Source of the DNA: Desulfatiglandales bacterium
GTDB taxonomy: Bacteria > Desulfobacterota > DSM-4660 > Desulfatiglandales > Desulfatiglandaceae
Length of the DNA stretch: 64,000 bases
Direction: 5' to 3'
NCBI GenBank assembly: GCA_963662465.1
Contig: OY759599.1
Span: 6,688,001-6,752,000 of the forward strand
Shown here: positions 46,749 to 63,510 of the stretch, piece by piece
Position numbering within the stretch: position 1 is the stretch's first letter
Layout: each line of letters opens with the position of its first letter
The notes under the pieces: model-generated
What the model was told of the DNA's origin: nothing
What the model saw: only the letters and a program-made list of their open reading frames with translations
Database searches by the model: none
Translations under genes and position numbers: made by a program

Positions 46749-47102
46749 GCAATAATTCTATCTGCTGCTAAATTCCTTACGAAGCGACCGCACAACCTTG
46801 TAGTTGGCTGACGCATGGCTATATTGACTCGCTTTGTGTCAGTGGCCTTAAATTTGAACAATTCCTATTTTGAAATTAAAAACGGCGTTATAGGGTCGAA
46901 AATGAGCCCTTTTCAAACACAAAAGTTTTTAGTTCTAGCCAGTTAGCGTAGGTGAACCAGATTCAGCCGATTCAAATTGGGAATCTGAAACGAATCTCTA
47001 TTTTATTTTTCTTTGGTCAAGGTGGTGTCCCACCTTATATTATCGGTAGGCAATTCGGTGCTTATGTTCATTTCCTTCCCACTGTTAAGGTTTTCTCCAT
47101 CA

Positions 47103-49108
47103 CGCATAAGTCTAAATGTTGTGGGGTTTACTCTAACATATTGAAATTATTTCATCTGTTAAACGGTTCCGAATCAATATCCTAATCAAAGCGCATTTCG
47201 TGAGGCCAAACATTTTTTCCTGAATTCGCCTTAGCGGAAAAAAGTTAGGGACTTTTTTTGATAAGTGTGCATAATCATAGTGCAACAGTCTATGTTAAAT
47301 TAGAGAGGTTGCACATGATTAATAATATTAAGAGAGCTTTGACAATGTTGGACAAAGCTCAAAACAGACTTGCAAGACAATGTTATTACGATCCAAAACA
47401 GTATCCTGAGATTTTCTTTGAAATTGAGAAATGCATTAATGCCATCAGATCATGGATCAATGAAAGGGAGATGTTTCAATCATTGCAATATTTTTATGTA
47501 ACATTGTCTGCTCTTATTGATGAACTTGGTAGGTTAATAAGTCAATTATGGGATATTTGTAAGCCAATAAAAGGGAAAAAAAGCATTCCAAAAACACAAC
47601 GGGATCGACAGAAAATTAGAATCTTTTATTCAATTCGTTCAATGATAAGTAATATTACTAAAAAATTGAATAATGTAAAAAGTCGTGATAGTACAATCAG
47701 TATTGCATTTGAGATAGGGATGTTAAAATCTTTTGATAAATCCATAATCGAAAATGTAAAAAAGAAAATGGAAGACCTTGTTTCTAAACGAGGAAATCAA
47801 ACATATATCTTTCCTTATAATAACACCGAAAGCTATCATGCTCTCGTAAAAGATAGTAAGAAGTTTCGCATTGAAGTATTAGATAAACTCGATAAATATG
47901 ATCACCACACAGGCCATAATTCAACATGTTCTGGACCTAAAGAATATGTTTTATCTGGTTTCCACGGGAATCCTCGAAAAACAATAATGAATGGAGGAGA
48001 ACAACAGACATTCCCAATCCGCATGATACAATGCCGGAAGTGCAAACAAAAGTTCTCTCTTGTTCCCAGCTTTCTCCCAAGGGAAAAGAATTTTGGTATA
48101 GAGATTATTGGGCACGTATTTCGGAATATGTACCGTTTTAATGCGAGCATTCAAGGAGCCATCGAAAGCCTTAAAATTATTGGCAAAAAAAGTGTCAAAA
48201 GCAAACAAACCATCTTGAACTGGAATCGATGGGCAGGAACACTTCATCCTGCAACAATACTAACAAGAGCAGGAGTGAAAGGCTCAGGATATCTACAGGA
48301 AGATGAGGGCTTTGAAAAAGAACCAAATTTAAGAACTTATTCTGTAGTTATGGTCGATCCTGAAAATTTATTAGTATGGCACTCCGATTATGTTGATCAT
48401 GTTGATGAAGAAAACCTGTGCGGTTCATTTGAGGATTTTTTGCAAAAAATCGACTTCAAAATCCTTGGTGTAACAAAAGATAAGTGGAAAGCCTCAACCA
48501 ATGCTATCAAGACCGTATTCCATAACATTTGGGTCGGATATTGCCATCGTCATTGTTTGAAAAACTTCTACGATGCACTATCAAAATATCAAAAAGAATC
48601 AAAATGTACCGACCAAGAAGTGGACAAGTTTTATAAAAAATTTAAGAAAGTTTTGAAAACATCCACATCTAAAGTTAACTTGGAAGTAAAGATTAAGGCA
48701 TTAGATGACGATGCATTTTCTCATCCATTACTAAAAAAGAGGGTAGTAGAATTAAAAGAAAATGCCACTCATTATACCTCTCATAAAAATAGAAATGGGA
48801 TAAAACAAACAACCTCCATTGTTGACAATTATTTAAAAGGAATCAAACGTAAACTAAAACAAATTGAGAGTTTTCGAGATAAGAAATGGGCAAGTCTTTT
48901 CTTTCGAGCACATGCGACTATCAGGAATTTTGTCCCATTTTTACCTGGCGCAAAAAATGCTCATAAAAGTCCCTTTGAATTAGCCAACGGCCAAACATTT
49001 GACTTACCTTGGATTCAAGTTATGAATGTTCATAATGCATTCTTGTTTACCGAAAACGCCTTTTAATTTTGATGGGTTATACAACCCCACAACATTTAGA
49101 CTTATGCG
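47103..49108 (+). mobile_element. Insertion sequence, 2006 bp, 26-bp TIRs, 8-bp TSD
   Basis: CGCATAAGTCTAAATGTTGTGGGGTT inverted at both ends; CTCCATCA at 47095-47102 and 49109-49116. Confidence 0.93.
47258..49066 (+). CDS. DDE transposase, family uncertain; true start may be downstream (MINNI)
   Basis: Zn-finger CRKC, QEDEG, VTKDKW, YCHRHC, TTSIVDN; lies between the TIRs. Confidence 0.85.
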   Translation: MISVHNHSATVYVKLERLHMINNIKRALTMLDKAQNRLARQCYYDPKQYPEIFFEIEKCINAIRSWINEREMFQSLQYFYVTLSALIDELGRLISQLWDICKPIKGKKSIPKTQRDRQKIRIFYSIRSMISNITKKLNNVKSRDSTISIAFEIGMLKSFDKSIIENVKKKMEDLVSKRGNQTYIFPYNNTESYHALVKDSKKFRIEVLDKLDKYDHHTGHNSTCSGPKEYVLSGFHGNPRKTIMNGGEQQTFPIRMIQCRKCKQKFSLVPSFLPREKNFGIEIIGHVFRNMYRFNASIQGAIESLKIIGKKSVKSKQTILNWNRWAGTLHPATILTRAGVKGSGYLQEDEGFEKEPNLRTYSVVMVDPENLLVWHSDYVDHVDEENLCGSFEDFLQKIDFKILGVTKDKWKASTNAIKTVFHNIWVGYCHRHCLKNFYDALSKYQKESKCTDQEVDKFYKKFKKVLKTSTSKVNLEVKIKALDDDAFSHPLLKKRVVELKENATHYTSHKNRNGIKQTTSIVDNYLKGIKRKLKQIESFRDKKWASLFFRAHATIRNFVPFLPGAKNAHKSPFELANGQTFDLPWIQVMNVHNAFLFTENAF

Positions 49109-49654
49109 CTCCATCACTTCGAATAAAACCAGCACGTGTATTGAACTTAATTTCAGCTATCTCGGCCCCTTTTAAGGTCCCTCGAATCATTTCATAGGTC
49201 TCGACCGGGTAATTCCCGTTTTGTAAACTGCCCATAACGAGGTCCCCTTCCTGAGTTATAGCTATGGTTCCATTAAAAGTCTTTCCGCAAGAACTCTTTG
49301 TAACAGCGTGCCACATACCGGATAGGTTATAGACTAATGCTCCATTTGGAAGTTTAACCGTATTCGGCATATCAGCATTTAGTCTTACTCCATCCCGCAT
49401 GGCGGAATTGCAGGCAACACCACATAATAAGATGAAGAAACCCATGACAAACCATTTTTTCATTTTAGACATGCTCCTTTCAGCTAAGACTGGGATCGAA
49501 AAACAATTCTACCATTCAAAATATCTCATTAGAATTTTATTGACAAAAATATTGTAAGAGAGAGCGGGGAAAGGTAGATCACCCCCCGCCGCCGCCTCTC
49601 TTTTTAAAACCGGAAAACTCTTCAACAAGGTCACTTCAGAACCGCAAATTAAAA

Positions 49655-50206
49655 TCACTTTCCAGGCAGGCTATAGGTTGCCGTAACCTCCACAAGAGCA
49701 TCACCTTTGCTTTCTCCGGCGAAGGGTTTGAGCATCCTGACCTTAAAGGTATTCTTTCCCTGAATGCCTTTGAACCGGCCCGTTCCGCAAATATATTTCC
49801 CCGTCCCATGTCCGGCTGGAAGTTTGCCTTCTTTGAGCTTTGTCATAACCCCTTCTACTTTTACCAGAGCCGTAGATCCATCTTTAAAGATAAGCTGGGA
49901 ATATCCCTGAAAGGTTCCCAGTCCCCGAACTATATCAAAGGTACATCTCAGAAGTTGCTTGGCTTTCTCGCCGTCTTCATATTCCACATCGCCTTGGCGC
50001 TCATAAAAACCGATGACCCGGCCCGGTGAATCCGGTATGGGTATGGCCTGCATCTTGGTAATCCAGTTATTGACCTTGAAATTACGGGTTACTTCGCCAG
50101 CCTGCACGACGGATGTCAACACACACAGTGAAATGACGAGGGTCATGAAGCACAGTGCCCATGGATTCAGAATTCCCCTGCCGCTGTTTCTACCTGTAAT
50201 GTTCAT
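49655..50206 (-). CDS. Exported hypothetical cassette protein (beta-rich, GTGRFKG motif)
   Basis: AGGAG RBS; signal peptide ending VQA. Confidence 0.75.
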   Translation of the reverse strand: MNITGRNSGRGILNPWALCFMTLVISLCVLTSVVQAGEVTRNFKVNNWITKMQAIPIPDSPGRVIGFYERQGDVEYEDGEKAKQLLRCTFDIVRGLGTFQGYSQLIFKDGSTALVKVEGVMTKLKEGKLPAGHGTGKYICGTGRFKGIQGKNTFKVRMLKPFAGESKGDALVEVTATYSLPGK

Positions 50207-50404
50207 GCTAGTTTCTCCTTTTCCCATTTTTCAATTGTGGTTTAACATTTTCTGAGCCGCATGATCGAATTTCCTTTTTCATCACCTCCCTTTTCCTATG
50301 AATTCTCAAAAATCTGCGAAAATATTACCCATGGCGCAGTCTTGTTGACGGGTCTGACCGTCAACATTTTTTGGTTTCGCGAAAATGCTACTATCACCGC
50401 GAAC

Positions 50405-50491
50405 GTTTAACGACAAGCTCACCAGCGCCTCCCACCGGCCCCCGCCAGGACCGCCCAAGTATCAGGCGTCTGGTGCAGCGTTTGGTTGTGC
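50405..50491 (-). repeat. attC site 2
   Basis: GCACAAC-CAAAC-GCTGCACCAGACGCC...GGCGCTGGTGAGC-TTGTC-GTTAAAC. Confidence 0.9.
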
Positions 50492-50707
50492 TGCGGCCAG
50501 TTTCCCTAGATGCACTGTAGATAGTGAGTTCGAAAAAGCTATAAACATTGTATTTTCTTTGGCTTGGCGTATTAAAACAGTTTTCCACGCTACCAATTGG
50601 GACAACCCACAAAAATCATTTTTTGGATGGACTTGGCATTTCACCAAGCCCATCCTTGTCAAATTGACGTCTATCTGCCTATTAAAGCGGGAGAAACTGC
50701 GTTGCAG

Positions 50708-52036
50708 CTACTCAACAATTGCCGCATTTACAGCGTTATTTACCTTATAACCCCATGGTAAACCTGCTCGTGGAATCTGCGACATGAACATTACCACTGT
50801 CTCATCGACGGGATCATTGAACCAAAGCGTACTCCAAAAACCTCGCCAGCCATAAGCACCTTTACCGCCGTAGCAATCGTTAAGGGCATTCATCTTTTCG
50901 TTTTTCTGTATATCCACACAATATCCCCATCGATTGTTTGTAAAATAATTTCGGAATTCATGACCCTCTGGCACTTGAATAGTAGTCATAAGTTTGACTG
51001 CTTGTCGGCTCAAAATGCGCACCCCGTCCAGTTCCCCCATATTCAACAACATTTGGGAGAATCTGTAGAAACCATAGGTGGTGCCATGCAAACCGCCTCC
51101 TGCTGCAAAGTAGGCCTTGTTTTTACCAAATGTGTAAAGCGATCCCAAAGCTACCGGTCCCATGGACCATTCTTTTGTTGCTTTCACAAGCGTACCAGGT
51201 TTGAGAAAAATAGCTGGAATTCTCGGAAAAACATTTTCTGGAGGATAAAACCAGAAATCTTTTATCTTCAATGGGGTAAAAATGTTCATTTCCATGTATT
51301 GATCAAGGGGTTTCCCGGAAAGTATTTCAACCAGATAGCCCATAACATCTGCGGCACCCTGGCTATATCCCCATCCTTCTCCCGGCTGAAAGACAAGGGG
51401 GCATTTGGCGAGAGCTTTAACATTCTTCTCCAGATTCTTAGTATAGGTCTCGCTTAACATATCCTGAACGCCTTCTTTGACAAAGCATTTTCCTACGTAG
51501 GCATGAAGGGGGCTCATGCGCATCAGCATGGTCGCTGAAATACCGCTTGTAAAGCTCAATAAATCCTGAATCCGAATTTCACGCTTTGCGGGCACCAGTT
51601 TGATCTCGCCTTCCGCATCCATCTCTGCCACTTTCATACTTTTGAATTCGGGAACATATTTTGAGACCGGATCTTTGAGCTGAAACATTCCCTGATCCCA
51701 CAATTGCATCAAGGCGACTGCTGTAATGGTTTTGGTCATAGAAGCCAATCGGAATATGGCATCCGTTTCCATGGATTTTCCTTCTTCTGCTTCACCAAAG
51801 GGTTTGAAGTAACAAATTTTGCCATGTCGGGCTACCAAAACCACTGCTCCTTTAAAAAACTTCTGCTCAAGTCCTTTTTTGACCACCTTGTCTACATTTT
51901 CGAGCATTGCACTTGATATGCCCACAGTTTCAGGGGTTACAACCTTTATCTCCTGAGCGAATGCTATTGTGGTTGAAATCAGCAGACTAAGTAAAAATAC
52001 AACTATTATTCGGGTCATTTCTTTGAGTCGTTTCAT
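50708..52036 (-). CDS. Serine hydrolase, beta-lactamase-related family (cassette gene)
   Basis: Signal peptide; FRLASMTK (SxxK), LLSFTSG, QPGEGWGYS, YGWRG. Confidence 0.9.
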   Translation of the reverse strand: MKRLKEMTRIIVVFLLSLLISTTIAFAQEIKVVTPETVGISSAMLENVDKVVKKGLEQKFFKGAVVLVARHGKICYFKPFGEAEEGKSMETDAIFRLASMTKTITAVALMQLWDQGMFQLKDPVSKYVPEFKSMKVAEMDAEGEIKLVPAKREIRIQDLLSFTSGISATMLMRMSPLHAYVGKCFVKEGVQDMLSETYTKNLEKNVKALAKCPLVFQPGEGWGYSQGAADVMGYLVEILSGKPLDQYMEMNIFTPLKIKDFWFYPPENVFPRIPAIFLKPGTLVKATKEWSMGPVALGSLYTFGKNKAYFAAGGGLHGTTYGFYRFSQMLLNMGELDGVRILSRQAVKLMTTIQVPEGHEFRNYFTNNRWGYCVDIQKNEKMNALNDCYGGKGAYGWRGFWSTLWFNDPVDETVVMFMSQIPRAGLPWGYKVNNAVNAAIVE

Positions 52037-52373
52037 ACAAATTCTCCTTAATGATTTCTTTTAGGTTTTCTTAAGGTTGGACCTGTCCCGTTTCATGTAT
52101 ATGGGCACAGTTACCATGATAGTGGAGATGTTTAGAAAATATTTTATTCCATTGTCACCTCCTTTCCATTTCAAATTCGTACAGAAATAGAACAAAGATG
52201 CAACCTCATTTTTGTTTACGAAAAAAGCTGTAGAAATTAACAAAAGTAGAGGTGATCCCTATGCCCCCCTAATGAAACAACCCACAATCTTGGGGTTGAC
52301 ATATGCTGAACTGTCGTTCATTACATCTGTTCTCCATACGCCGTTTTGCTGCCTTACTTCTTTTTCGGAGGGG

Positions 52374-52459
52374 GCACAACGACAAGCTCAGCGGCCCCTC
52401 CACCGGCCCCCGCCGGAACCGCCAGACTTCCAGGGGTCCGCTGAAGCGCCTGGTTCGCC
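52374..52459 (-). repeat. attC site 3
   Basis: GGCGAAC-CAGGC-GCTTCAGCGGACCCC...GGGGCCGCTGAGC-TTGTC-GTTGTGC; its R' is complementary to R'' of attC2. Confidence 0.9.
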
Positions 52460-52480
52460 AACCCCGGTTTTCTTAAAAGT

Positions 52481-52693
52481 TCAGCCAGTTGCAGCAATTT
52501 TTTCAGACTGTTCATCTAAAGCTCTGAGCGTTTCTTGGATAGCTATTACTTCCGTCTCATCAAAATAGGTCTCACCGCATTGGCTGCATACCCAAGCAGG
52601 AATTCTATCCATAGTGAGATGGTATCCCTTCCGATCAACATGAAAAGGAGCAATGCCTTTTTCCATCTTTCCTTGACAGTAAATGCAGTTCAT
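52481..52693 (-). CDS. YgiT-type zinc-finger protein (MqsA-like antitoxin)
   Basis: MNCIYC..IPAWVCSQCGETYF. Confidence 0.88.
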   Translation of the reverse strand: MNCIYCQGKMEKGIAPFHVDRKGYHLTMDRIPAWVCSQCGETYFDETEVIAIQETLRALDEQSEKIAATG

Positions 52694-53019
52694 GATCGTT
52701 TCCTCTTTTTGAAATCTGATTCCCATTCGCGGGGATTGGGAATATACGCTGTAATGATGGCCAGGTAATCAGTTTTAGGCGAGCAAACGATGTGTATTGA
52801 GCGACCGTCTACACCCTGCCCCAAAATCAGGCAGCTATGCCCTCGCGAATCCCCCGGATAATCCTCAACCAATTCACCTTGCTCCACTGCCTTTCTAACA
52901 TCAAGGGGACTTATCATTCTGTCCGGTCTGGACATCTGCCGCACAGCATGCGGGAGGTAAATGATCCTCTTCCCCGCACTCTCTCGGGCTGACTTTATGG
53001 TATCAGAAACTTCATTCAT
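52690..53019 (-). CDS. DUF4258-family protein (putative toxin)
   Basis: HAVRQM, EDYPGD..SCLILG, IHIV, ITAYIP..W; 4-nt overlap with the zinc-finger gene. Confidence 0.85.
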   Translation of the reverse strand: MNEVSDTIKSARESAGKRIIYLPHAVRQMSRPDRMISPLDVRKAVEQGELVEDYPGDSRGHSCLILGQGVDGRSIHIVCSPKTDYLAIITAYIPNPREWESDFKKRKRS

Positions 53020-53186
53020 AACAGACTCTCAAGAAATTAGTGGCGCGAGATAAAATCTGGATCCAGTTTTCCAATTTTGATATTAAATTGGGCATCCCAA
53101 TCCTTCTGAGTATAGACTTAAACGTATGCCATTGGGCGATAATGAAGGATGAAAGGATGCAATAATGTCAGCACGCACCATGCTTC

Positions 53187-55100
53187 TCATTTCAATCCTG
53201 CTTTGTGAAGACCCACTGTTAACTGTTTCCGGATAGCCTCATCTTTATAAGATGCAACAAGATGGCTGATACACGCGAAAGAAAAATCTGGATTTATTTC
53301 TATCACTTTCGACACTTCAAAACGAGTGCCGTCTTCGTCTCCCAAAATCGCATAAACAAAAGCAAGAAATATGTGACCATATAAAAATTTTGGTGCAATT
53401 TGAATTGCACTTTCAAACGCAGAAATCGCTTCATCATACCTGCCGAGTCTCGTATAAGCCCTTCCAAGAACGGTAAAATACCAGGGAGGAGGTAAAGGAT
53501 TTAATCGAAGTGCTTTTTTCAGTGATGTTAGTGCTTCATTAAATTGGCCAATTTTGAATAGATAATAGCACCGAATTACGTAAATGTCCGGCCAATTGGG
53601 ATCCATTTTGATGGCCTTATCGAACTGTTCTAAAGCTTTCTCATCCTTTCCCACAAAAGTATAAACAGCGCCCATTGTTTCGTGAGCAAAAGGACAGGAG
53701 TTATTTACGGTTAGAGCTTTTTGGGCGAGTTCAAATGCTTTTCCGATTGATTCCTTCGGAGTTTTACTCACGCACATTCCCACTTCGGCCAAATAGCCCC
53801 AAGCGAGATAGGCATATGCTGCCCCATAGTTTGGATCTAGTTCGATGGCTTCCTGGCATTTTTGCATGGATAATTTGTTTCCCTCCACATCCCCCTGCCA
53901 ACCGTAATACATAGCCTCAATGAACTTTAAATAAGCACCAACATTATTTGTTCCTCTCGCGCAAGGACCTACACCGATGCCACCAATTATCTTGATATGA
54001 AGAGATTGCGATATTTTTAATGCAATTTCATCTTGTAGGTCGAATATATCGTTAATATTGCGGTCATAAGTCTCCGCCCAAAGATGATTGCCATTCTTAG
54101 TATCAATGAACTGGGCCGTCACACGTATCCGATCCCCAGATTTCTGAATGCTTCCTTCAAGTACATAATGAACATTTAGTTGCTGTCCCAATTCTTTAAT
54201 ATTTACGGGCTTGCCCTTAAAGGTAAAGGTCGTGTTACGGGCGGTAACGGAAAGGTCTGGAATTTTGGCAAGTACAGTAATGATATGCTCTGTGAAACCA
54301 TCGCAAAGATATTGTTGTTTTGGATCGCCAACCATATTGGTGAAAGGCAGAACAGCGATAGAATTCTTCTCAGACATTGGGTTCAGCGGTTTTTTCGCCG
54401 AATCAGACGAAATGCTTTTGAGGGGTGATTTAGCGTCTGTTGGAAGTGAGTTTTGGTTTGGATAAAGACGCCAAAATGCAAGAGCAGCTCCGAGGATTAC
54501 AAGAACAACCATCACCACGACTTTTTTTCTCCCCAATTTCAATTTTCTTTCCGGTTCTGCAGCATCCTCGTGATCTAAGGATATCTTGTAAACCTTTATC
54601 GGTTTAGCGATATTCTTTACTGTGTGCTTACCAATAAAATGAAATCCTAATTCCAACTTGTTTTCGATTTGCTCATAACCGCTTCCAGAAATACAGATTC
54701 CACCACCATCAGCCAATGATTCGATCCTAGCAGCAATGTTTACTCCGTCACCGTAAATGCGATCAGCATCTTGAATAACATCGCCAAGGTTTATGCCCAT
54801 TCTGAAAATCATCCTGCGATTTTCAGGCAGTTCCTCATTCTTGTCCTTCAGAGCTTTCTGGATTTCAACCGCACACTGGACAGCATCCACTACACTGGCG
54901 AATTCAGAAAGAATATTGTCACCGGGAGAATCCACCACACGCCCGCTGTGCCTTTGGACGATTGCAGAGAAAATTTCGCGGTATTCAGTAATGGTTTTGA
55001 CCGTGGCAATCTCATCGTCGCCCATGAGGCGACTATAGCCTTGAACATCTGCGCTAAGTATGGCTCTGAGTTTTCTTACAACTCTATTTGGTTCCATCAC
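53187..55100 (-). CDS. Class III adenylate/guanylate cyclase with TolB-like and TPR domains
   Basis: ILSADVQGYS, SPGDN, YGDGVNIAARIE, SIAVLPF, YVLEGS, TPRs. Confidence 0.9.
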   Translation of the reverse strand: MMEPNRVVRKLRAILSADVQGYSRLMGDDEIATVKTITEYREIFSAIVQRHSGRVVDSPGDNILSEFASVVDAVQCAVEIQKALKDKNEELPENRRMIFRMGINLGDVIQDADRIYGDGVNIAARIESLADGGGICISGSGYEQIENKLELGFHFIGKHTVKNIAKPIKVYKISLDHEDAAEPERKLKLGRKKVVVMVVLVILGAALAFWRLYPNQNSLPTDAKSPLKSISSDSAKKPLNPMSEKNSIAVLPFTNMVGDPKQQYLCDGFTEHIITVLAKIPDLSVTARNTTFTFKGKPVNIKELGQQLNVHYVLEGSIQKSGDRIRVTAQFIDTKNGNHLWAETYDRNINDIFDLQDEIALKISQSLHIKIIGGIGVGPCARGTNNVGAYLKFIEAMYYGWQGDVEGNKLSMQKCQEAIELDPNYGAAYAYLAWGYLAEVGMCVSKTPKESIGKAFELAQKALTVNNSCPFAHETMGAVYTFVGKDEKALEQFDKAIKMDPNWPDIYVIRCYYLFKIGQFNEALTSLKKALRLNPLPPPWYFTVLGRAYTRLGRYDEAISAFESAIQIAPKFLYGHIFLAFVYAILGDEDGTRFEVSKVIEINPDFSFACISHLVASYKDEAIRKQLTVGLHKAGLK

Positions 55101-55230
55101 CGGCCTCCAAGATAATTGAGACTGAAAAAAAGACTATGAGCAGGGCTGTACATATGGATTGTATCTATAATACGAAACGAATCTATAAATGCCAAATACC
55201 AAATTTGGGGGTTCTACGTCTTTGAAGGCT

Positions 55231-57353
55231 CTCACGGTAGGAACGCCGGTCACCCAGCGCCCCCCGCACAGTCCCGGACGTGCGGTTTTCCCGCATCCGG
55301 TTCCTCGGTTGTACTCGCTTTCGCGCAAAGCATCAGCATTAGCAAAACACCTTTCGTGGCCGGGGTGCCGTCGGTAGCTTCGGTTTGGCGATCCCCAGGC
55401 GATTTATGGCCCGGTTGAAAGCCTTCCAGGTGAAACTTCTCCGCTTACCCCCTCTTCGGTTCAGCCACTTAAACGCACAATCACTCGCCCATCGGTAAAA
55501 ACGCCATAACGAATTGGCGTTCCCCACCACGCTGTAATAGTTGTAATGTCCGCGCAGTTTGCGGTTGAGCGTCTTTATGAACGCAATCCCCTTCAAATGT
55601 CGGTTTTCCTTCACCCATTCCTTGATGCGCCTGCAGGCACCCTGCAGCTTTTTACGGCCGGTGCGCTGCATGACTCTCACCTTTCCCTGTTTGTCATAGG
55701 TCCAGTAGGTCTCAAAACCCAAAAAGACAATCCGCCTGCGCATGCTCGGATCAAAACGACTGAATCGCATCATGGCGGTTTTATCAGGCGCTACACTGAG
55801 GCCAAACTTCAAAAGCCTTTCGGGCAGCACGTGGAAAAACCCTTTTGCCTCTTTTTTGTACTGAAAAGCACAGACAAAATCATCTGCGTACCGAATGATC
55901 ATGGCGGCCCCTTTACAGTGGGGCTTCACCACCTTTTCAAACCATAAGTCAAGGGCAAAATGCAGGTAGACATTGGCCAAAACCGGCGATACAATCCCCC
56001 CTTGGGGAGTACCGCTGTCCGGATGGATAATTTTGCCATCCGTATCCAGAATGCCGGCTTTAAGCCATTTTTGGATCAGATTTAAAAACGGCGCATCATC
56101 AACTCTTTCCATGAGCATTCGCATCAGCCAATCATGGTCCATATGGTCGAAAAAGCCTTTGATATCGGCCTCGACGACATATCCATATGATCCAAACTGA
56201 AGTTCAAAACGCAAATCATTGACAGCGTCTTTTGCGCTTCGGTTGGGCCTGTAACCATAGCTGACATTCAGAAAGTCAGCTTCGAATATGGCTGTCAGGA
56301 GTTTGGCACATGCCAATTGCACCAACCGGTCTTCAAGGGCCGGAATGCCCAAGGGGCGTTGTTTGCCGTTTTCTTTGGGGATGTAACTTCTGCGTACCAG
56401 TTTGGCACGGTAACGTCTGGTTTTCAATCGCTCCGCCAATGACGCGATATTGGCCTCAAGATTTCCTTCGTAGGCCTCGGCCGTCACTTTGTCCACACCA
56501 CTGGCTGCATCCTTATTCAGGTCTTTCCAGCAGGCACGGAGAAACGGCGCGTTCAGACACCGGTAAAGGTCTTGAAAGCGGTGTTTTCCATCAACTTTTG
56601 CCTTAATGGCTATTCCCTGCAGTGAGGTTGGCTCGTATTGTTCCAGCCCTACATTGTCCGGTGCGAGTTTCCTTTGCAGACTGCGTACTTCCGTCAGGTC
56701 CTTCCCCATGTGGTGGGCTTTCCCCACCGCTGAGTAGTATGCCTGATAAGACACCCCATTGGCGTATAGAGGGCCATCGGAGGTCCGATTTTCCTCCCAC
56801 CCGGTTGTTCCTTTCAGCATTTCGGCTGTGTAGTGAACCACTGTTACTTTACCTCACCGTCAGTGTGAAATAAACTCCCTGGAGCCTTTGGGGCTTCCCG
56901 AGTTCTACGGCGCATCTCTTCCTGCATGCCACGGCCTGAGGACTCCGGCGGACCTCCACATCCTCGCCATAAACGGATGCTTCCGTGTTGCCTTCGGTGA
57001 ACGTTCAAACCCTCGGCGTCCGCAATTGCTATTTCGAAGCTGTACCAGCACTTCAGGGTGCGCGATCACCCCTGCGGCCTACAGGATACTCTGCCTACGC
57101 TTAACCCATCTTGTTCGCTGCTTCCACCGTTAGGTGGGGTGAGTCCATCCGCCTATTTGCTCATCCCTGAGCGCGGCTCGTTTCCAACCAGCATATGAAT
57201 GCCGATGTCCTACACCTGACAGACTGAACAACTCCGCCATGGGTCCAAGGCTCGATACGGGTGGGTGGCTAACCCTTACAGAAAGCCATTACTGATTTTC
57301 CTCCCGACAGGGACTTTCACCCTGCAAGATACGCCGAGCTTTCCTCGGCGCGA
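55231..57353 (-). mobile_element. Complete group II intron with RT/maturase, inserted after GTTC of attC4
   Basis: 5' TCGCGCCGAGGAAAGCTCGGCG..GGTGAAAGTCCC; DV GAACCGGATGCGGGAAAACCGCACGTCCGG; DVI ending CCTACCGTGAG; boundaries good to about 1-2 nt. Confidence 0.88.
55339..56841 (-). CDS. ltrA: Group II intron reverse transcriptase/maturase without endonuclease domain; true start uncertain, probably near 56630
   Basis: RPLGIP, ADIKGFFD, PQGGIVSPVLAN, RYADDF, LRGHYNYY. Confidence 0.93.
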   Translation of the reverse strand: MVHYTAEMLKGTTGWEENRTSDGPLYANGVSYQAYYSAVGKAHHMGKDLTEVRSLQRKLAPDNVGLEQYEPTSLQGIAIKAKVDGKHRFQDLYRCLNAPFLRACWKDLNKDAASGVDKVTAEAYEGNLEANIASLAERLKTRRYRAKLVRRSYIPKENGKQRPLGIPALEDRLVQLACAKLLTAIFEADFLNVSYGYRPNRSAKDAVNDLRFELQFGSYGYVVEADIKGFFDHMDHDWLMRMLMERVDDAPFLNLIQKWLKAGILDTDGKIIHPDSGTPQGGIVSPVLANVYLHFALDLWFEKVVKPHCKGAAMIIRYADDFVCAFQYKKEAKGFFHVLPERLLKFGLSVAPDKTAMMRFSRFDPSMRRRIVFLGFETYWTYDKQGKVRVMQRTGRKKLQGACRRIKEWVKENRHLKGIAFIKTLNRKLRGHYNYYSVVGNANSLWRFYRWASDCAFKWLNRRGGKRRSFTWKAFNRAINRLGIAKPKLPTAPRPRKVFC

Positions 57354-57482
57354 GAACGTTTTAGTTAACAGGCGAACGGGCAAGAAAGAAATATGCGACC
57401 AATCCACCCGGAAGCGTGATACGGAAAAATCAATTTCAATTTGCTCCAATGACCAGTTTGCCTGTTCAACGGCTGGTTGGAC
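57351..57482 (-). repeat. attC site 4 (longer, unrelated central region)
   Basis: GTCCAAC-CAGCC-GTTGAACAGGCAAAC...GTTCGCCTGTTAAC-TAAAAC-GTTC, canonical 5/6-nt spacers. Confidence 0.85.
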
Positions 57483-57742
57483 AGACCCGCGGGTCACACG
57501 CACATAGGTTAATGGGAGCAGGATCGCCGCTATGGAGATTAAACGATCTTTGCAGCTACCGCATGACTTCTTTTTGACCCATCATTCCGGCCTAAGCCAG
57601 TTAAAAATGATAAAATTTCTTTTTTTGATCGCATGGTCCCGCTAAAAATGCCAAAATATCGTGTTATTAGGCAGTTTACCAAACACCTCGACATCAAAAA
57701 CCTTTCACTCGACTAAAGACCTTTCGACTGCGCATGCTTAAT

Positions 57743-58918
57743 CTATGCTGCTTGGGCGTGTATCATGTCCTGGACTTTATTGAACCTCGGAAGCTCTCTT
57801 AACTTTTTGACCGGCGTCAATATTTCCAGAGTTATGAGGCGTTTCCCGCAAACAGGGCAACAATCCGGTCGCTCGTCGCTTCGCTGTTGCCAGAGACTCT
57901 GCCAATCCAGGAATCCCAGACTTTCAAGAGGCGGTTGACCCAGTATTTCCCGGCAGAGTGCCAGTTCTTCTTTTGAGCTGTGATGATAGAGTTCGTATGA
58001 ACGCACCATCACGGTATTTGCTAGGGGGACGTGTTGCAGATAGCGGCTGATAAAGGTTTGAATCGGCAGGGAGATGAGTTTTACCTTCTCACGACCGTAA
58101 TTGAAGGTCACGTTCCCGTTTTCAATGCTGTAGATGCGTTTGTTTGAAATTGCTCCGCCTCTCAAGTAACGCGCCAGGTAAATCAACACGCCTTCACCGT
58201 ATGAATAGGTCTCTTTGAGCTTGACGTTCCATTTTTTGCGGCGGCCCAGTTTATTGAAGAGGTTCCGGGCCTGCTGAGGCCCCATACCCTCGGGCAGAAC
58301 CAGTTCGTTCCGATCCAGGGCTTTTCTCAAATAGTAGAGGTACTTGCCTCGAAATACCGCCCGGACGATGCCAAAGGGCAAAAGGAATTTTTTTGATGAA
58401 GCGATCCACTCGCCGGCGATCAGCCCACCGGCCGTTACCAGACAATGCAGATGCGGATGAAAGTCCAGTTTTCGGCTCCAGGTATGCAGTGAGGCGATGA
58501 TGCCGACTTTGCCCCCCAAATGCTTCGGATCTCCAAGGAGTTCGGAAAGGGTTTCAGTGGCGCTTTTGAACAGCAGATTGCCCATAAGCTTGCGGTTCAA
58601 CCGCCATAAGTCGTGCAATTCATCGGAGATGGTGAAAATAACATGGAAATGTTCGGTGTTTAAGATGCGAGCCTTTTGTTTTGCCAGCCAACGTTCCACC
58701 TGGGTAAAAGCGCAGAGGGGGCACATGCGATGTTTACACGAGTTGTACCAGTGCCTTTTGAAGTGACCGTCCGGGCACGCCTGCACGTGACCCCCCAGAG
58801 CAGATGTGCGGCAACTCATCAGACGGTGTGCCGCTTCACGAATATGTTCCGGAAGAAGATGGGTCTGATCATAGAGGGCATAGCCTATAAGAAAGATGCT
58901 CTGAATCGTCGCTTCCAC
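57743..58918 (-). CDS. IS91-family (HUH, Y2) transposase carried as a cassette
   Basis: CRTSALGGH..YNSCKHRMCPLC, HFHVIFT, HTW..HPHLHC, YLARY; AAGGAGG RBS before GTG. Confidence 0.92.
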   Translation of the reverse strand: MEATIQSIFLIGYALYDQTHLLPEHIREAAHRLMSCRTSALGGHVQACPDGHFKRHWYNSCKHRMCPLCAFTQVERWLAKQKARILNTEHFHVIFTISDELHDLWRLNRKLMGNLLFKSATETLSELLGDPKHLGGKVGIIASLHTWSRKLDFHPHLHCLVTAGGLIAGEWIASSKKFLLPFGIVRAVFRGKYLYYLRKALDRNELVLPEGMGPQQARNLFNKLGRRKKWNVKLKETYSYGEGVLIYLARYLRGGAISNKRIYSIENGNVTFNYGREKVKLISLPIQTFISRYLQHVPLANTVMVRSYELYHHSSKEELALCREILGQPPLESLGFLDWQSLWQQRSDERPDCCPVCGKRLITLEILTPVKKLRELPRFNKVQDMIHAQAA

Positions 58919-58978
58919 TGAAACCTCCTTTATTTACTGGGAGTTACGACGTTAGTTCCCCCGCTGTCCAGCGGGTCT

Positions 58979-59064
58979 GTCCAACGACAAGCTCAGCGGT
59001 CCCTCCACCGGCCCCCGCCAGAACCGCAAGACTTCCAGGGGTCCGCTGAAGCGTTTGGTTGGCG
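58979..59064 (-). repeat. attC site 5
   Basis: CGCCAAC-CAAAC-GCTTCAGCGGACCCC...GGGACCGCTGAGC-TTGTC-GTTGGAC. Confidence 0.9.
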
Positions 59065-59239
59065 CTCATAAACCTATCTAAACGCACGATATTGATAAAT
59101 AAACAGCCAGCACCTGATTGCATAAATGCCTTCTTACTTTGATGTCACGCAAGTAAAAGGTTGTTGGGTTCCCCAAAGTGTCATTGGGCAACTGGAACTT
59201 CGAAACCCCTGCCTAAAAATAATTCATATTCCTTATTCA

Positions 59240-59761
59240 TCAGAATTGCAGTGAATTTATATATTCATGTGCCTCTTTTAAACTCATTCCTGTTGCTATG
59301 TGCATAAACTTAATTGCAGCAACCTTTCTATCAGCAGCGAGAAGTTCACGACTTTTTGCATCTAAATCTTCTTTCGAAAGTCTTTCAGAGGAGTCTTCAC
59401 CTAATATATTATTTATCGAATTTTCTTTATCCTGTTTGTCAATATAATCCTTTGCTTCTTGCAAACTCATTGTCGTGTTTTGATGCATAAACGCAATTGC
59501 ATCAATTTTTTTTTCTTGTACGCCAAATTGGCGGGCTTTGTTTGAGATGTTTTTTTGTAGCATTCCATGATTTGGTTGGCTTGTAATATCTGCATTCTTT
59601 CTGTCTGGTATACTTTCATTCGCAGGTAAGGTAGATTGATGTAATTGTTCTGCGTATTCTTTGGCGCGTTTTAATCCCCAGCCGGTTTCTGATATTATTA
59701 ACTTGATGGCTTGAATTTTTTTGTCTTCAGACAATAAAGATCTTATTTTCTTATCATCCAT
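59240..59761 (-). CDS. Protein with three ribosomal L7/L12 C-terminal-like repeats
   Basis: KIQAIK..TGWGLKRAKEY / KIDAIA..TTMSLQEAKDY / KVAAIK..TGMSLKEAHEY. Confidence 0.75.
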   Translation of the reverse strand: MDDKKIRSLLSEDKKIQAIKLIISETGWGLKRAKEYAEQLHQSTLPANESIPDRKNADITSQPNHGMLQKNISNKARQFGVQEKKIDAIAFMHQNTTMSLQEAKDYIDKQDKENSINNILGEDSSERLSKEDLDAKSRELLAADRKVAAIKFMHIATGMSLKEAHEYINSLQF

Positions 59762-61260: not shown

Positions 61261-61428
61261 CTAAGGTGCGGTTATGGTCGCTCTTTTAATGGATATTTCG
61301 GCAGGAGCCACCGGAGCCTTCTATGACCTCGTCGCAGCTTACAATTACTCATATGGGGGTCAAAATTCGGTTGTCGCAAGAGGTCAATTTTCGGTTGACA
61401 TTTCGAGAAAAGAAAGGTGGAAATGAGC

Positions 61429-63510
61429 ATGAGCAATAAAATCAATGCTGAACATATTAGTCGGGAAGCATGTATATATATCCGTCAGTCAACACCGGGC
61501 CAAGTTCTACAGCATCGTGAAAGCCAACTTTTACAATATGGCTTGGTAGAAAGGGCAAAAGAATTAGGATGGAACGAGAAAAACATATGGATGATAGATA
61601 GTGATTTGGGAATAACTGCATCGGGATGCGTTGACAGAAAAGGATTCCAGAATCTTCTTTCATCTGTGTGTGAAGGAAGAATAGGGGGTATTTTCTCGAT
61701 TGAATCATCGAGGTTGGCCCGCAACGGTCGAGAGTGGCATACGTTGCTTGAGATCTGTGCACTTAAAAAAACGGTTCTTGTAGATCAAGGAGCTGTTTAT
61801 GACCTAAACGTGTCAAATGATCGTTTGCTCCTGGGCTTAAAGGGAGAAATGAGTGCAATGGAATTGAGCCTATTAAAGGAGCGTTCTCAGGCGGCAATAC
61901 AACAAAAAGCGAAGCGGGGAGAATTATATCTTACTGTACCGGCAGCCTATATAAAGACTAGGGATAATAAGCTGAAAAAGAATCCTGACAAACGAATTCA
62001 AGAAGTCATTGATTTGGTATTCACGAAATTCAAGGAATATGGTACTCTTCGTCGGGTGTATCATTGGTTTTTAGATGAACAGATTGAGATTGCTGTTGTT
62101 TCCAGCGGTAAAGGGGAACGTAGGATAGAGTGGAAACTACCGTCTGCTCATACCTTGTCGCATATAGTGAACAACCCAATTTACGCCGGCGCCTACGTCT
62201 ATGGCCGGACTAAAACAGAGGTAACTTTTGAAAATGGGCGCAAGCGACTGAGGAAGGGTATTCGTAAGGAACAAAAGGATTGGGACGTTTTAATATTGGA
62301 TCACCATGAAGGTTACATCACATGGGAAGAGTACCAGTATAACATGGAGATACTAACTCAAAATACAAATAAGAAAAGGCCGGTGGTGAGAGGAGCTGTT
62401 CGCGGAGGAAAGGCATTGCTTGGAGGTTTGTTAAGATGCGGTCATTGCGGTAGAAAGTTAATTGTACGATACCAAGGCCGTAATGGAACTCATAAACGTT
62501 ATGAGTGTAGCCGCAAACGAGGTAACGAGACAGGAAAGGCGTGTATATCATTTGGTGGATTCCGTGTTGACCGGGCTGTTACGGATTTTCTTTTGAAAGT
62601 ATTATCACCGATAGGATTAGAAGCTTCTTTAGAGGCGATAAAGAAAATCAACCATGAATCGGATTCAGTGAAACGGCAACGGGAACTGGAGTTGGAACAA
62701 GCGCGTTATGAAGCTTTACGGGCAAAACGTCAATACAATGCAGTAGACCCTGATAATCGTTTGGTAGCATCTACATTGGAGAAGGATTGGAATGACGCTC
62801 TTGTTAAGGTAGCAAGATTGGAGAATGAGGTTGACGCCATGGGATCGAACACCCCTTCGCTTTCCCCTGAGGAGGAGACTGAGATCAGAGATCTATCAAA
62901 AGATTTACCTCGTGTATGGAATGATCCGTTTTGCTCTTTGGATTTAAAGAAGCGTATAATCCGGACGGTTATCAAAGAGATCGTTGTTTATTTGGAAGAT
63001 CAAAAGATCAAATTAATCATTCACTGGGAAGGGGGTGAGCATACGGAATTGGAGGTATTGAAGAATAAGTCTTCCAGTTACCCATTGAAAACCGATGTTG
63101 ATACAAAAAAGATAATATCCGATTTGGCTAGAATTATGCCTGATAAACACATCGTGGCCTTTCTCAACCGTGTGGGTACAAAGACTACAAAGGGATATAC
63201 CTGGAATCCGGTAAGGTTGCGTTCATTTCGAAATAGGCATAATATCCCTGTATATCATGAAGGAGAGAGGCAGCGACGAGAAGAATATACGGTAGCTGAA
63301 GCAAGCGAAAGGCTGGGTATTGGCAGCACCAAAGTTTGGAGACTTATACAACATGAGATTCTACCCGCCAAGCGAGTATGTTCCGGTGCTCCATGGATCA
63401 TTTCAAAAAAGGACCTTGAATCTGAAGTGATAAAAAAGGCAGCTCATTCCGGGCTTCCAAAGAGCCCGCTTTCAAGAAACTCAAAACAACAAGTCTTTAA
63501 TTTTCAATAA
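61429..63510 (+). CDS. Large serine recombinase with Zn-ribbon, coiled coil and C-terminal HTH
   Basis: YIRQST catalytic Ser, ESSRLARN, NPIYAG, LRCGHCG..YEC, YTVAEASERLGI. Confidence 0.95.
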   Translation: MSNKINAEHISREACIYIRQSTPGQVLQHRESQLLQYGLVERAKELGWNEKNIWMIDSDLGITASGCVDRKGFQNLLSSVCEGRIGGIFSIESSRLARNGREWHTLLEICALKKTVLVDQGAVYDLNVSNDRLLLGLKGEMSAMELSLLKERSQAAIQQKAKRGELYLTVPAAYIKTRDNKLKKNPDKRIQEVIDLVFTKFKEYGTLRRVYHWFLDEQIEIAVVSSGKGERRIEWKLPSAHTLSHIVNNPIYAGAYVYGRTKTEVTFENGRKRLRKGIRKEQKDWDVLILDHHEGYITWEEYQYNMEILTQNTNKKRPVVRGAVRGGKALLGGLLRCGHCGRKLIVRYQGRNGTHKRYECSRKRGNETGKACISFGGFRVDRAVTDFLLKVLSPIGLEASLEAIKKINHESDSVKRQRELELEQARYEALRAKRQYNAVDPDNRLVASTLEKDWNDALVKVARLENEVDAMGSNTPSLSPEEETEIRDLSKDLPRVWNDPFCSLDLKKRIIRTVIKEIVVYLEDQKIKLIIHWEGGEHTELEVLKNKSSSYPLKTDVDTKKIISDLARIMPDKHIVAFLNRVGTKTTKGYTWNPVRLRSFRNRHNIPVYHEGERQRREEYTVAEASERLGIGSTKVWRLIQHEILPAKRVCSGAPWIISKKDLESEVIKKAAHSGLPKSPLSRNSKQQVFNFQ

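Follow-up and report, generated by a model that had tools for sequence, protein, structure and literature searches.

Integron gene cassettes are considered to be cargo that does not replicate. Among integron parasites, group IIC-attC introns and IS1111-attC elements insert into attC with an enzyme of their own. The element described here resembles both (as they are mentioned in part of PMC9229058) in being apparently selfish and concentrated at integron sites, and differs from them in being itself a forward-oriented cassette with its own attC. In the IS91 family, according to the relevant part of PMC13181058, terIS is a palindrome beside the cut tetranucleotide (5'-GTTC, or 5'-CTCG in IS91), fixed tetranucleotides (5'-GTCC among them, for IS1294b) serve as targets, and only the bottom-strand single-stranded circle inserts. 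The integron integrase IntI acts on attC as a folded bottom strand, and single-stranded DNA, which favours attC folding, has rolling-circle replication among its sources (passages of PMC8946536). The upstream tyrosine recombinases of IS91-like elements are described as the closest homologues of IntI, without its insertion (bioRxiv 10.1101/542381, in part).

One relative of the cassette studied here is already present in a clinical class 1 integron under the bare name gcISKpn22. It is the fourth cassette of In722 and is named, with no mechanism given, in the pertinent portions of PMC6262049 and PMC12772345. Like the cassette described below, gcISKpn22 consists of one IS91-family gene between G|TTGAAC and GTTCAAC plus attC; its protein has 37.7% amino acid identity to the enzyme described below and groups with the one-gene lineage. 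It differs in being single-copy in 11/11 plasmids, in an end match of 10 of 15 and in a weak left hairpin (3 bp). An excerpt of PMC9229058 places ISShvi3 beside attC in a Shewanella integron and gives one sentence to ISShvi3 forming a cassette. The literature, searched apart from IS and integron databases, yielded no mechanistic description of such HUH cassettes, and the sections of PMC11322121 and PMC9345347 that came into question hold nothing on this cassette design.

The cassette and its copies

Judged from its boundaries, the IS91-family gene found in the window (the whole stretch of 64,000 nucleotides that was analysed) almost certainly belongs to an integron cassette, with the following features.

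58979..59064, minus strand: upstream attC, of a 75-nt family common in the genome; the cassette is integrated into its G|TT
57357..58984, minus strand: the complete 1,628-bp cassette; its first base is the T that follows the crossover G in the upstream site, its last the G of its own R'
58979..58985, minus strand: R' core GTTGGAC; its last four bases correspond to bottom-strand 5'-GTCC, a tetranucleotide of the IS91-family cut-site type
58955..58975, minus strand: terIS-like hairpin, 7-bp stem, 3 nt behind the tetranucleotide and followed by GGAA
58924..58930, minus strand: ribosome-binding site AAGGAGG
57743..58918, minus strand: IS91-family Y2 HUH endonuclease gene, 391 aa, with zinc-binding domain, H156-x-H158 and Y247/Y251
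57530..57540, minus strand: oriIS-like motif AATCTCCATAG, internal to the cassette, with the CCATA core ∼54 nt ahead of R''
57476..57490, minus strand: 15-bp complement of the left end, made up of R'' and an 8-nt extension and overlapping a 12-bp palindrome
57351..57482, minus strand: the cassette's own attC, with R'' at 57482-57476, L'' at 57470-57461 (one extrahelical base), L' at 57372-57364 and the R' GTT at 57357-57355
55231..57354, minus strand: group II intron, a neighbour outside the element, with an RT gene at 56841-55339, apparently inserted directly behind the downstream GTT, its limits deduced from the sequence

The first-pass annotation had described an IS91 transposase packaged as a cassette, and the GTT-core junctions, the cassette's own attC and the IS91-family HUH gene with intact catalytic motifs bear this out. 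It had placed the end of the unit at the second of two complementary 15-mers; the copied unit runs on through attC to the G at 57357. The limits 58984 and 57357 are the points where similarity among the genome copies begins and stops, and the tandem unit is in the same register. G|TT crossovers lie on both sides, R' is complementary to the cassette's own R'', and in 13 of 15 distinct end pairs the 7-bp box pairs without a mismatch. The cassette and its relatives are positioned at attI or within attC arrays, in the orientation of the array (L167 is first beside intI, and L138 lies in In722). Integration of the IntI type is well supported by this junction anatomy. A simple scan of 57300-59300, which covers the cassette, returned 0 sigma-70-type promoter-like sites, so that expression of the HUH gene probably depends on position.

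Two other readings of these boundaries were rejected. A classical insertion sequence with terminal inverted repeats is out because the copied unit includes attC, about 120 nt past the second 15-mer; only GTT is common to both sides at the junctions, and no element end was found at both repeats with target duplication. A 57353>58982 joint in runs X1 and X2, considered as an excision scar, is explained by another chromosomal locus at single-copy depth: at C1:3214478-3214611 the same attC family is directly followed by the same intron.

The protein carries Zn_Tnp_IS91 and Y2_Tnp domains and matches NF033538 with 347 bits against an NCBIfam cut-off of 125, in agreement with the earlier assignment as an IS91-family HUH transposase. 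H156, H158, Y247 and Y251 are invariant in 17/17 aligned proteins, and dN/dS is 0.04-0.12 in 43 of 45 pairs (2 are saturated), indicating purifying selection. The predicted fold is of the HUH type (parvoviral NS1 nickase, Z 8.8, rmsd 3.5 over 154 residues; TrwC, Z 7.2), as judged from the confident core of a model with a mean pLDDT of 55.7. A search of the PDB by sequence returned zinc-finger noise only. Residue 309 (codon 57994-57992), which lies in a part of the model (290-350) too poor to place it, is Glu in the window copy and Gly in 16/17 aligned proteins. Glu309 is present in 3/4 full copies of the window's variant, two of the four sharing a duplicated block. The Glu309 enzyme is possibly impaired; the spread of the allele was not stopped.

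There are a total of 17 copies of the cassette in the genome, with 79-100% protein identity. Fifteen of these start exactly at G|TTGGAC (G|TTGGACAGACCCGC), and in the other 2 the 3' end of a group II intron lies a few bases inside the cassette start. At the right, 15/17 carry their own attC up to AAC-GTT (GAT in one), beyond which the bases are unrelated and varied; of the remaining two, one has a small cassette attached at its L'' GTT and the other is truncated. Eight copies form a head-to-tail array with a period of 1,609 bp; they are 100% identical to one another and to a further copy that lies 1.1 Mb away in a different integron. The window copy and the one at C1:6789483 belong to one duplicated block and are not independent insertions. 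The cassette occupies the first slot at 4 of the 5 recognisable attI sites, namely those of all 3 full-length intI genes that head arrays and one orphan attI, while the fifth, beside a truncated intI, begins with a different cassette. Its tail is the most repeated attC-adjacent sequence in the genome, with 11-15 matches; the next family, which looks like a reverse-inserted intron, has 10, and all others have 1-3. Summed read depth was ∼120-175 as compared to 44, a value compatible with the chromosomal copies alone, and no circle junction of the window's variant was present in the contigs of four runs, in which rare forms are dropped.

Other small elements were observed around these copies. Like the intron of the window, which is on the sense strand and at an R' core behind the downstream GTT, sense-strand group II introns at C1:3354083 and C1:3339700 lie at R' cores, apparently six bases into the left end of an HUH cassette. 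A 105-bp element (C1:3355342-3355446) occurs in 14 near-identical copies, one of them just after the stop codon of an HUH cassette copy. A 160-bp gene-less cassette has two copies (C1:3208415 and C1:3355706), one of which is joined at the L'' GTT of the attC of an HUH cassette and replaces the rest of that site.

End signals and end complementarity

The left end of the cassette reads GTT, GGAC, 3 nt, a 7-bp hairpin and GGAA. This is the layout of the left ends of two IS91-family elements, L159 (GAAC, 4 nt, 6-bp hairpin) and L160 (CGAG, 3 nt, 6-bp hairpin), and makes the hairpin a candidate terIS. Among one-gene loci with a visible left end (25 rows, 23 distinct ends), 18 of the distinct ends carry a perfect stem of at least 4 bp at the hairpin position, the stem sequences differing. 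In 2,000 shuffles the mean was 1.1 and the highest value 6, and among 76 other cassette starts 6 had a stem of at least 4 bp and none one of 5. The stems covary: their sequences have changed across lineages 37-100% identical and the pairing is kept. A cut-type tetranucleotide was found in 22/23 left ends vs 3/76 control starts, a count that is partly built into the search pattern, unlike that of the hairpins, which is independent of it.

L159 and L160 terminate 4-5 nt after AATT(T)CCTAT, and the ori-like motif of the cassette resembles these ends. In one-gene relatives AATCTCCATAG or a variant lies 18-57 nt before R''. A loose ori-like pattern precedes 19 of the 88 attC sites of the genome, all of them on this cassette or on gene-less minis. 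The motif is internal, and the right junction is GTT followed by variable bases; by this layout the cassette is not a canonical IS91 element, because its end is not an oriIS terminus next to a target of the GTTC/CTTG/GTCC type. With IS91, IS801 and IS1294, as partly described in the literature, it shares a zinc finger and Y2 HUH protein, an ori-like motif after the gene, a left-end tetranucleotide followed by 3-4 nt and a hairpin, and an expected bottom-strand circle. Unlike them, it has attC beyond ori, the GTT cores of attI and attC as junctions, no fixed target tetranucleotide and, by the simple scan, a gene without its own promoter. The junction of a circle would thus be an IS91 ter-ori junction in which attC separates the cut site from ori. 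A copy integrated singly has no conserved cut tetranucleotide at its right junction and offers no obvious start site for copying.

Two 84-bp gene-less cassettes (C1:4723456 and C1:2362639) are 94% alike, and each heads an array. They contain only GTTG(G/A)AC, the ter hairpin, the ori-like motif and attC, and are likely to be non-autonomous minis.

The ends had previously been interpreted as those of a hybrid element on the strength of a 15-bp complementarity and an atypical attC. The hybrid character is retained in the R' fused to a terIS-like hairpin and in the internal oriIS-like motif, not in the complementarity. The two 15-mers are indeed present at 58985-58971 and 57490-57476 as an inverted pair, and within this genome the match does extend past the usual 7 bp. 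In a census of 88 attC sites and 52 attC-to-attC intervals, the 10 intervals that are this cassette have ends matching at 14-15 of 15 positions, vs an unbroken run of at most 9 and a total match of at most 12 of 15 in the other 42, many of which have introns inserted in them or cover more than one cassette. Among distinct one-gene end pairs the 8-nt extension matches 7-8 of 8 in 4/15 and only 1-5 of 8 in 11/15, and on this count the 15-bp match was rejected as a family-wide signal. The 27 two-gene end pairs, which were chosen by a pattern including part of the extension, match 11-14 of 15. Most of the 15-bp match is kept only by the sub-lineage of the window and by sister two-gene elements, and the extension is probably ancestral and dispensable.

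The attC itself is ordinary in geometry (R'', 5 nt and L'' with one extrahelical base; L', 6 nt and GTT), and the bottom strand of the natural head-to-tail junction folds as a textbook attC with an extended outer stem (z −3.6). Both observations rule out an atypical site. Folded alone, the isolated attC gives no signal (z about 0), and the score appears only in the joined form. Forcing the ter hairpin in place of the attC fold in the tandem junction costs 6.6 kcal/mol, and beside a foreign attC the ter hairpin does form in the folding computation. In this sub-lineage the 15-bp match could act as a switch between the ter hairpin and the IntI substrate.

One-gene and two-gene relatives

Relatives were sought in 301, 209 and 401 genomes, in genome and metagenome contig collections and in plasmids. 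One-gene relatives down to 37% identity are also cassettes. Homologues are bounded by GTTG(G/A)AC ... GT(C/T)CAAC and attC both in this genome and elsewhere, which passes the check proposed in the first-pass annotation. Outside this genome we identified 29 distinct one-gene loci, gcISKpn22 among them. The left end GTT(G/T)(G/A)AC is visible in 22 of these, a count partly conditioned by the search, as the end finders sought GTT(G/T)(A/G)AC and CCATA-like words. Eleven of the 22 left ends directly follow an attC, 2 follow a copy of the element's own tail, 1 lies at a contig start, and 8 are at attI or attI-like AT-rich sites, 2 of them with intI sequence beside. Five of the other loci are cut short or lack the 5' part, and in two (L055, L193) the end is missing or degenerate. 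A complete IntI-type attC was found in 18/29 loci and a broken one in 2, and no right end observed among them stops at the ori motif like canonical IS91. With the one-gene profile, at least 120 protein clusters exceed 580 bits (no gene context). The search across the phylum contributed one new one-gene locus (L197), and viral contigs gave 18 pattern matches and 0 relatives. Head-to-tail junctions in L063, L067 and L169 could reflect either a tandem or a circle.

In the two-gene forms (106 of 157 loci classified) a tyrosine recombinase lies between the left end and tnp; 6/6 aligned recombinases lack the IntI insertion. These elements resemble the cassette in the left end GTTG(A/G)AC-NNN-hairpin, the CCATAG motif, an R''-like box followed by a hairpin ending in GTT and, in L171, a head-to-tail junction. 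They differ in their own recombinase, in mostly 2/6-type spacers without an extrahelical base and in forming a separate clade. All 24 scored right sites (the distinct two-gene sites that passed the scoring filter, out of 127 loci) have a perfect stem, spacers of 2/6, 2/7 or 4/8 nt and no extrahelical base. The window cassette is not of this type, with only 68 nt between its left end and start codon and no recombinase gene, and a recombinase and Y2 pair was not found in this genome.

Two quick trees place the two-gene forms on one side of a branch (SH-aLRT 97 and 99) and the one-gene forms outside the two-gene clade (92 and 83); rooting depends on three long-branch sequences, and the second tree leaves out 21 rows. 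Two nested arrangements fit worse (p-AU 0.03, with groups picked after seeing the tree). These trees give no support to the idea that the one-gene forms arose from two-gene elements that lost their recombinase.

Some variants depart from both forms. L039, L147, L151 and L153 form a two-gene sub-lineage with an extrahelical base at the right site, as in true attC, and an apparently gene-less element of ∼400 bp at C1:139292 (minus strand) has an L039-type left end and right site. In L167, L168, L169, L184 and L193, members of a deeper one-gene lineage, an ORF of ∼70 aa lies between the left end and tnp and appears to overlap the tnp start, like orf121 in IS91. The C-terminal half of a SEC-C ORF in the window (60246-59959) resembles this ORF (pairwise E 1e-6 to 1e-12).

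Proposed copying of the cassette and alternative explanations

We favour, with some reserve, a selfish cassette of which the HUH enzyme copies out the bottom strand as a circle and the host IntI integrates that circle. In the first slot, the promoterless HUH gene would be expressed from the integron promoter. The enzyme would nick the bottom strand at GTCC/AAC, most simply where ter, attC and ori would be contiguous, as on a circle excised by IntI or in a tandem array. Rolling-circle displacement would release unit-length single-stranded circles, which may fold into a long-stemmed attC and be inserted by IntI at attI, an insertion that would restore first-slot expression and build tandem arrays. 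As the weakest step, the 15-bp match may switch the circle from the ter hairpin to the IntI substrate in this sub-lineage. The two enzymes use the same strand of this element, an agreement that follows from the parts of PMC13181058 and PMC8946536 cited above.

Copy-out and paste-in is favoured by the 17 copies with exact G|TTGGAC starts, own-attC ends and varied bases after GTT, by the first-slot positions, the identical tandem and distant copies and the most repeated attC-adjacent tail. The one-gene loci elsewhere, with a GTT-bounded left end and IntI-type attC and none ending at ori, agree with it, as do the low dN/dS, the invariant HUH motif and both tyrosines, the HUH-type predicted fold, the pairing left stems, the 84-bp minis, the lack of a recombinase and Y2 pair and the strand agreement. 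Against it stand the lack of a circle junction or excess depth for the window's variant, the single-copy gcISKpn22, the spread of the Glu309 allele, the right junction without a cut tetranucleotide and the weak 15-bp extension in 11/15 end pairs. IntI alone can duplicate cassettes, which also counts against it, and a role of the HUH enzyme in copying is what we infer.

An IS91 derivative captured as passive cargo, moved and multiplied by IntI alone and with ter- and ori-like signals that are relics, would explain why every junction is of the IntI type, why neither circles nor excess depth were observed, why gcISKpn22 is single-copy and how Glu309 copies could spread. We consider it unlikely in view of the purifying selection on the HUH protein, the hairpin retained with altered stems across lineages 37-100% identical, the gene-less minis that retain both signals and a copy number far above that of ordinary cassettes. 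A domesticated helper or defence function, in which HUH nicking exposes single-stranded DNA for attC folding or intI induction, or attacks invading DNA, to the benefit of the host, would fit the strong purifying selection, the first-slot, high-expression position and the folding of attC favoured by single-stranded DNA (PMC8946536, in part). It is very unlikely, since PADLOC gave no match and the identical copies in tandem and in several integrons, like the non-coding minis, look selfish.

The first-pass annotation had left movement to IntI, to the HUH enzyme or to both, of which IntI-type integration stands. The HUH enzyme could in principle perform both steps, cutting at GTT|GGAC and inserting at GTT cores, with attC as mere mimicry: the ter tetranucleotide sits right behind GTT, and with GTT at both junctions a cut after G (IntI) and one after GTT (ter) look the same in sequence. 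Insertion of the IS91 type needs a fixed ori-side target tetranucleotide (PMC13181058, in part), whereas the bases after the right-hand GTT vary widely, and one-gene forms keep an attC geometry with extrahelical bases and sit at attI; integration by HUH alone is accordingly improbable. Least probable is a deletion derivative of the two-gene elements (tyrosine recombinase and HUH), moved in trans by their recombinase. Both forms have a common left-end design, two-gene elements also show end complementarity of 11-14 of 15, and the two-gene element L179 lies at a similar attI. However, the one-gene forms fall outside the two-gene clade (SH-aLRT 97 and 99; nested arrangements, p-AU 0.03), this genome has no recombinase and Y2 pair, and 24/24 scored two-gene sites lack extrahelical bases.

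If host integration of HUH-made circles is true, a cassette able to amplify itself and to keep retaking the first, best-expressed slot would represent a novel type of integron parasite and alter the reading of array content. More tentatively, and with less confidence than we would give an even chance, these cassettes may be an old and widespread two-enzyme class: self-replicating cassettes for which HUH makes single-stranded circles, without their own integrase because they use IntI, sister to elements with HUH and an IntI-like recombinase, and a living link that would account for the recombination of bottom-strand single-stranded hairpins by IntI. The bottom-strand single-stranded circle common to IS91 and IntI, together with sister lineages with and without a recombinase, makes the origin of attC-type recombination testable, for which short defined substrates such as the 84-bp mini-cassette are suited.

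The array of the window (46750-59400) has attC sites at 59064, 57482, 52455, 50485 and 46742 and terminates close to a tRNA with a broken intron. A portion of the array has a duplicate ∼42 kb away (C1:6783020-6789626). In the upstream cassette, pieces of a group II intron flank a gene for a large serine recombinase (61417-63510, 697 aa), and a seemingly similar element truncates an HUH copy at C1:6827301. A cassette ORF at 59827-59240 contains three repeats resembling the C-terminal domain of ribosomal L7/L12.
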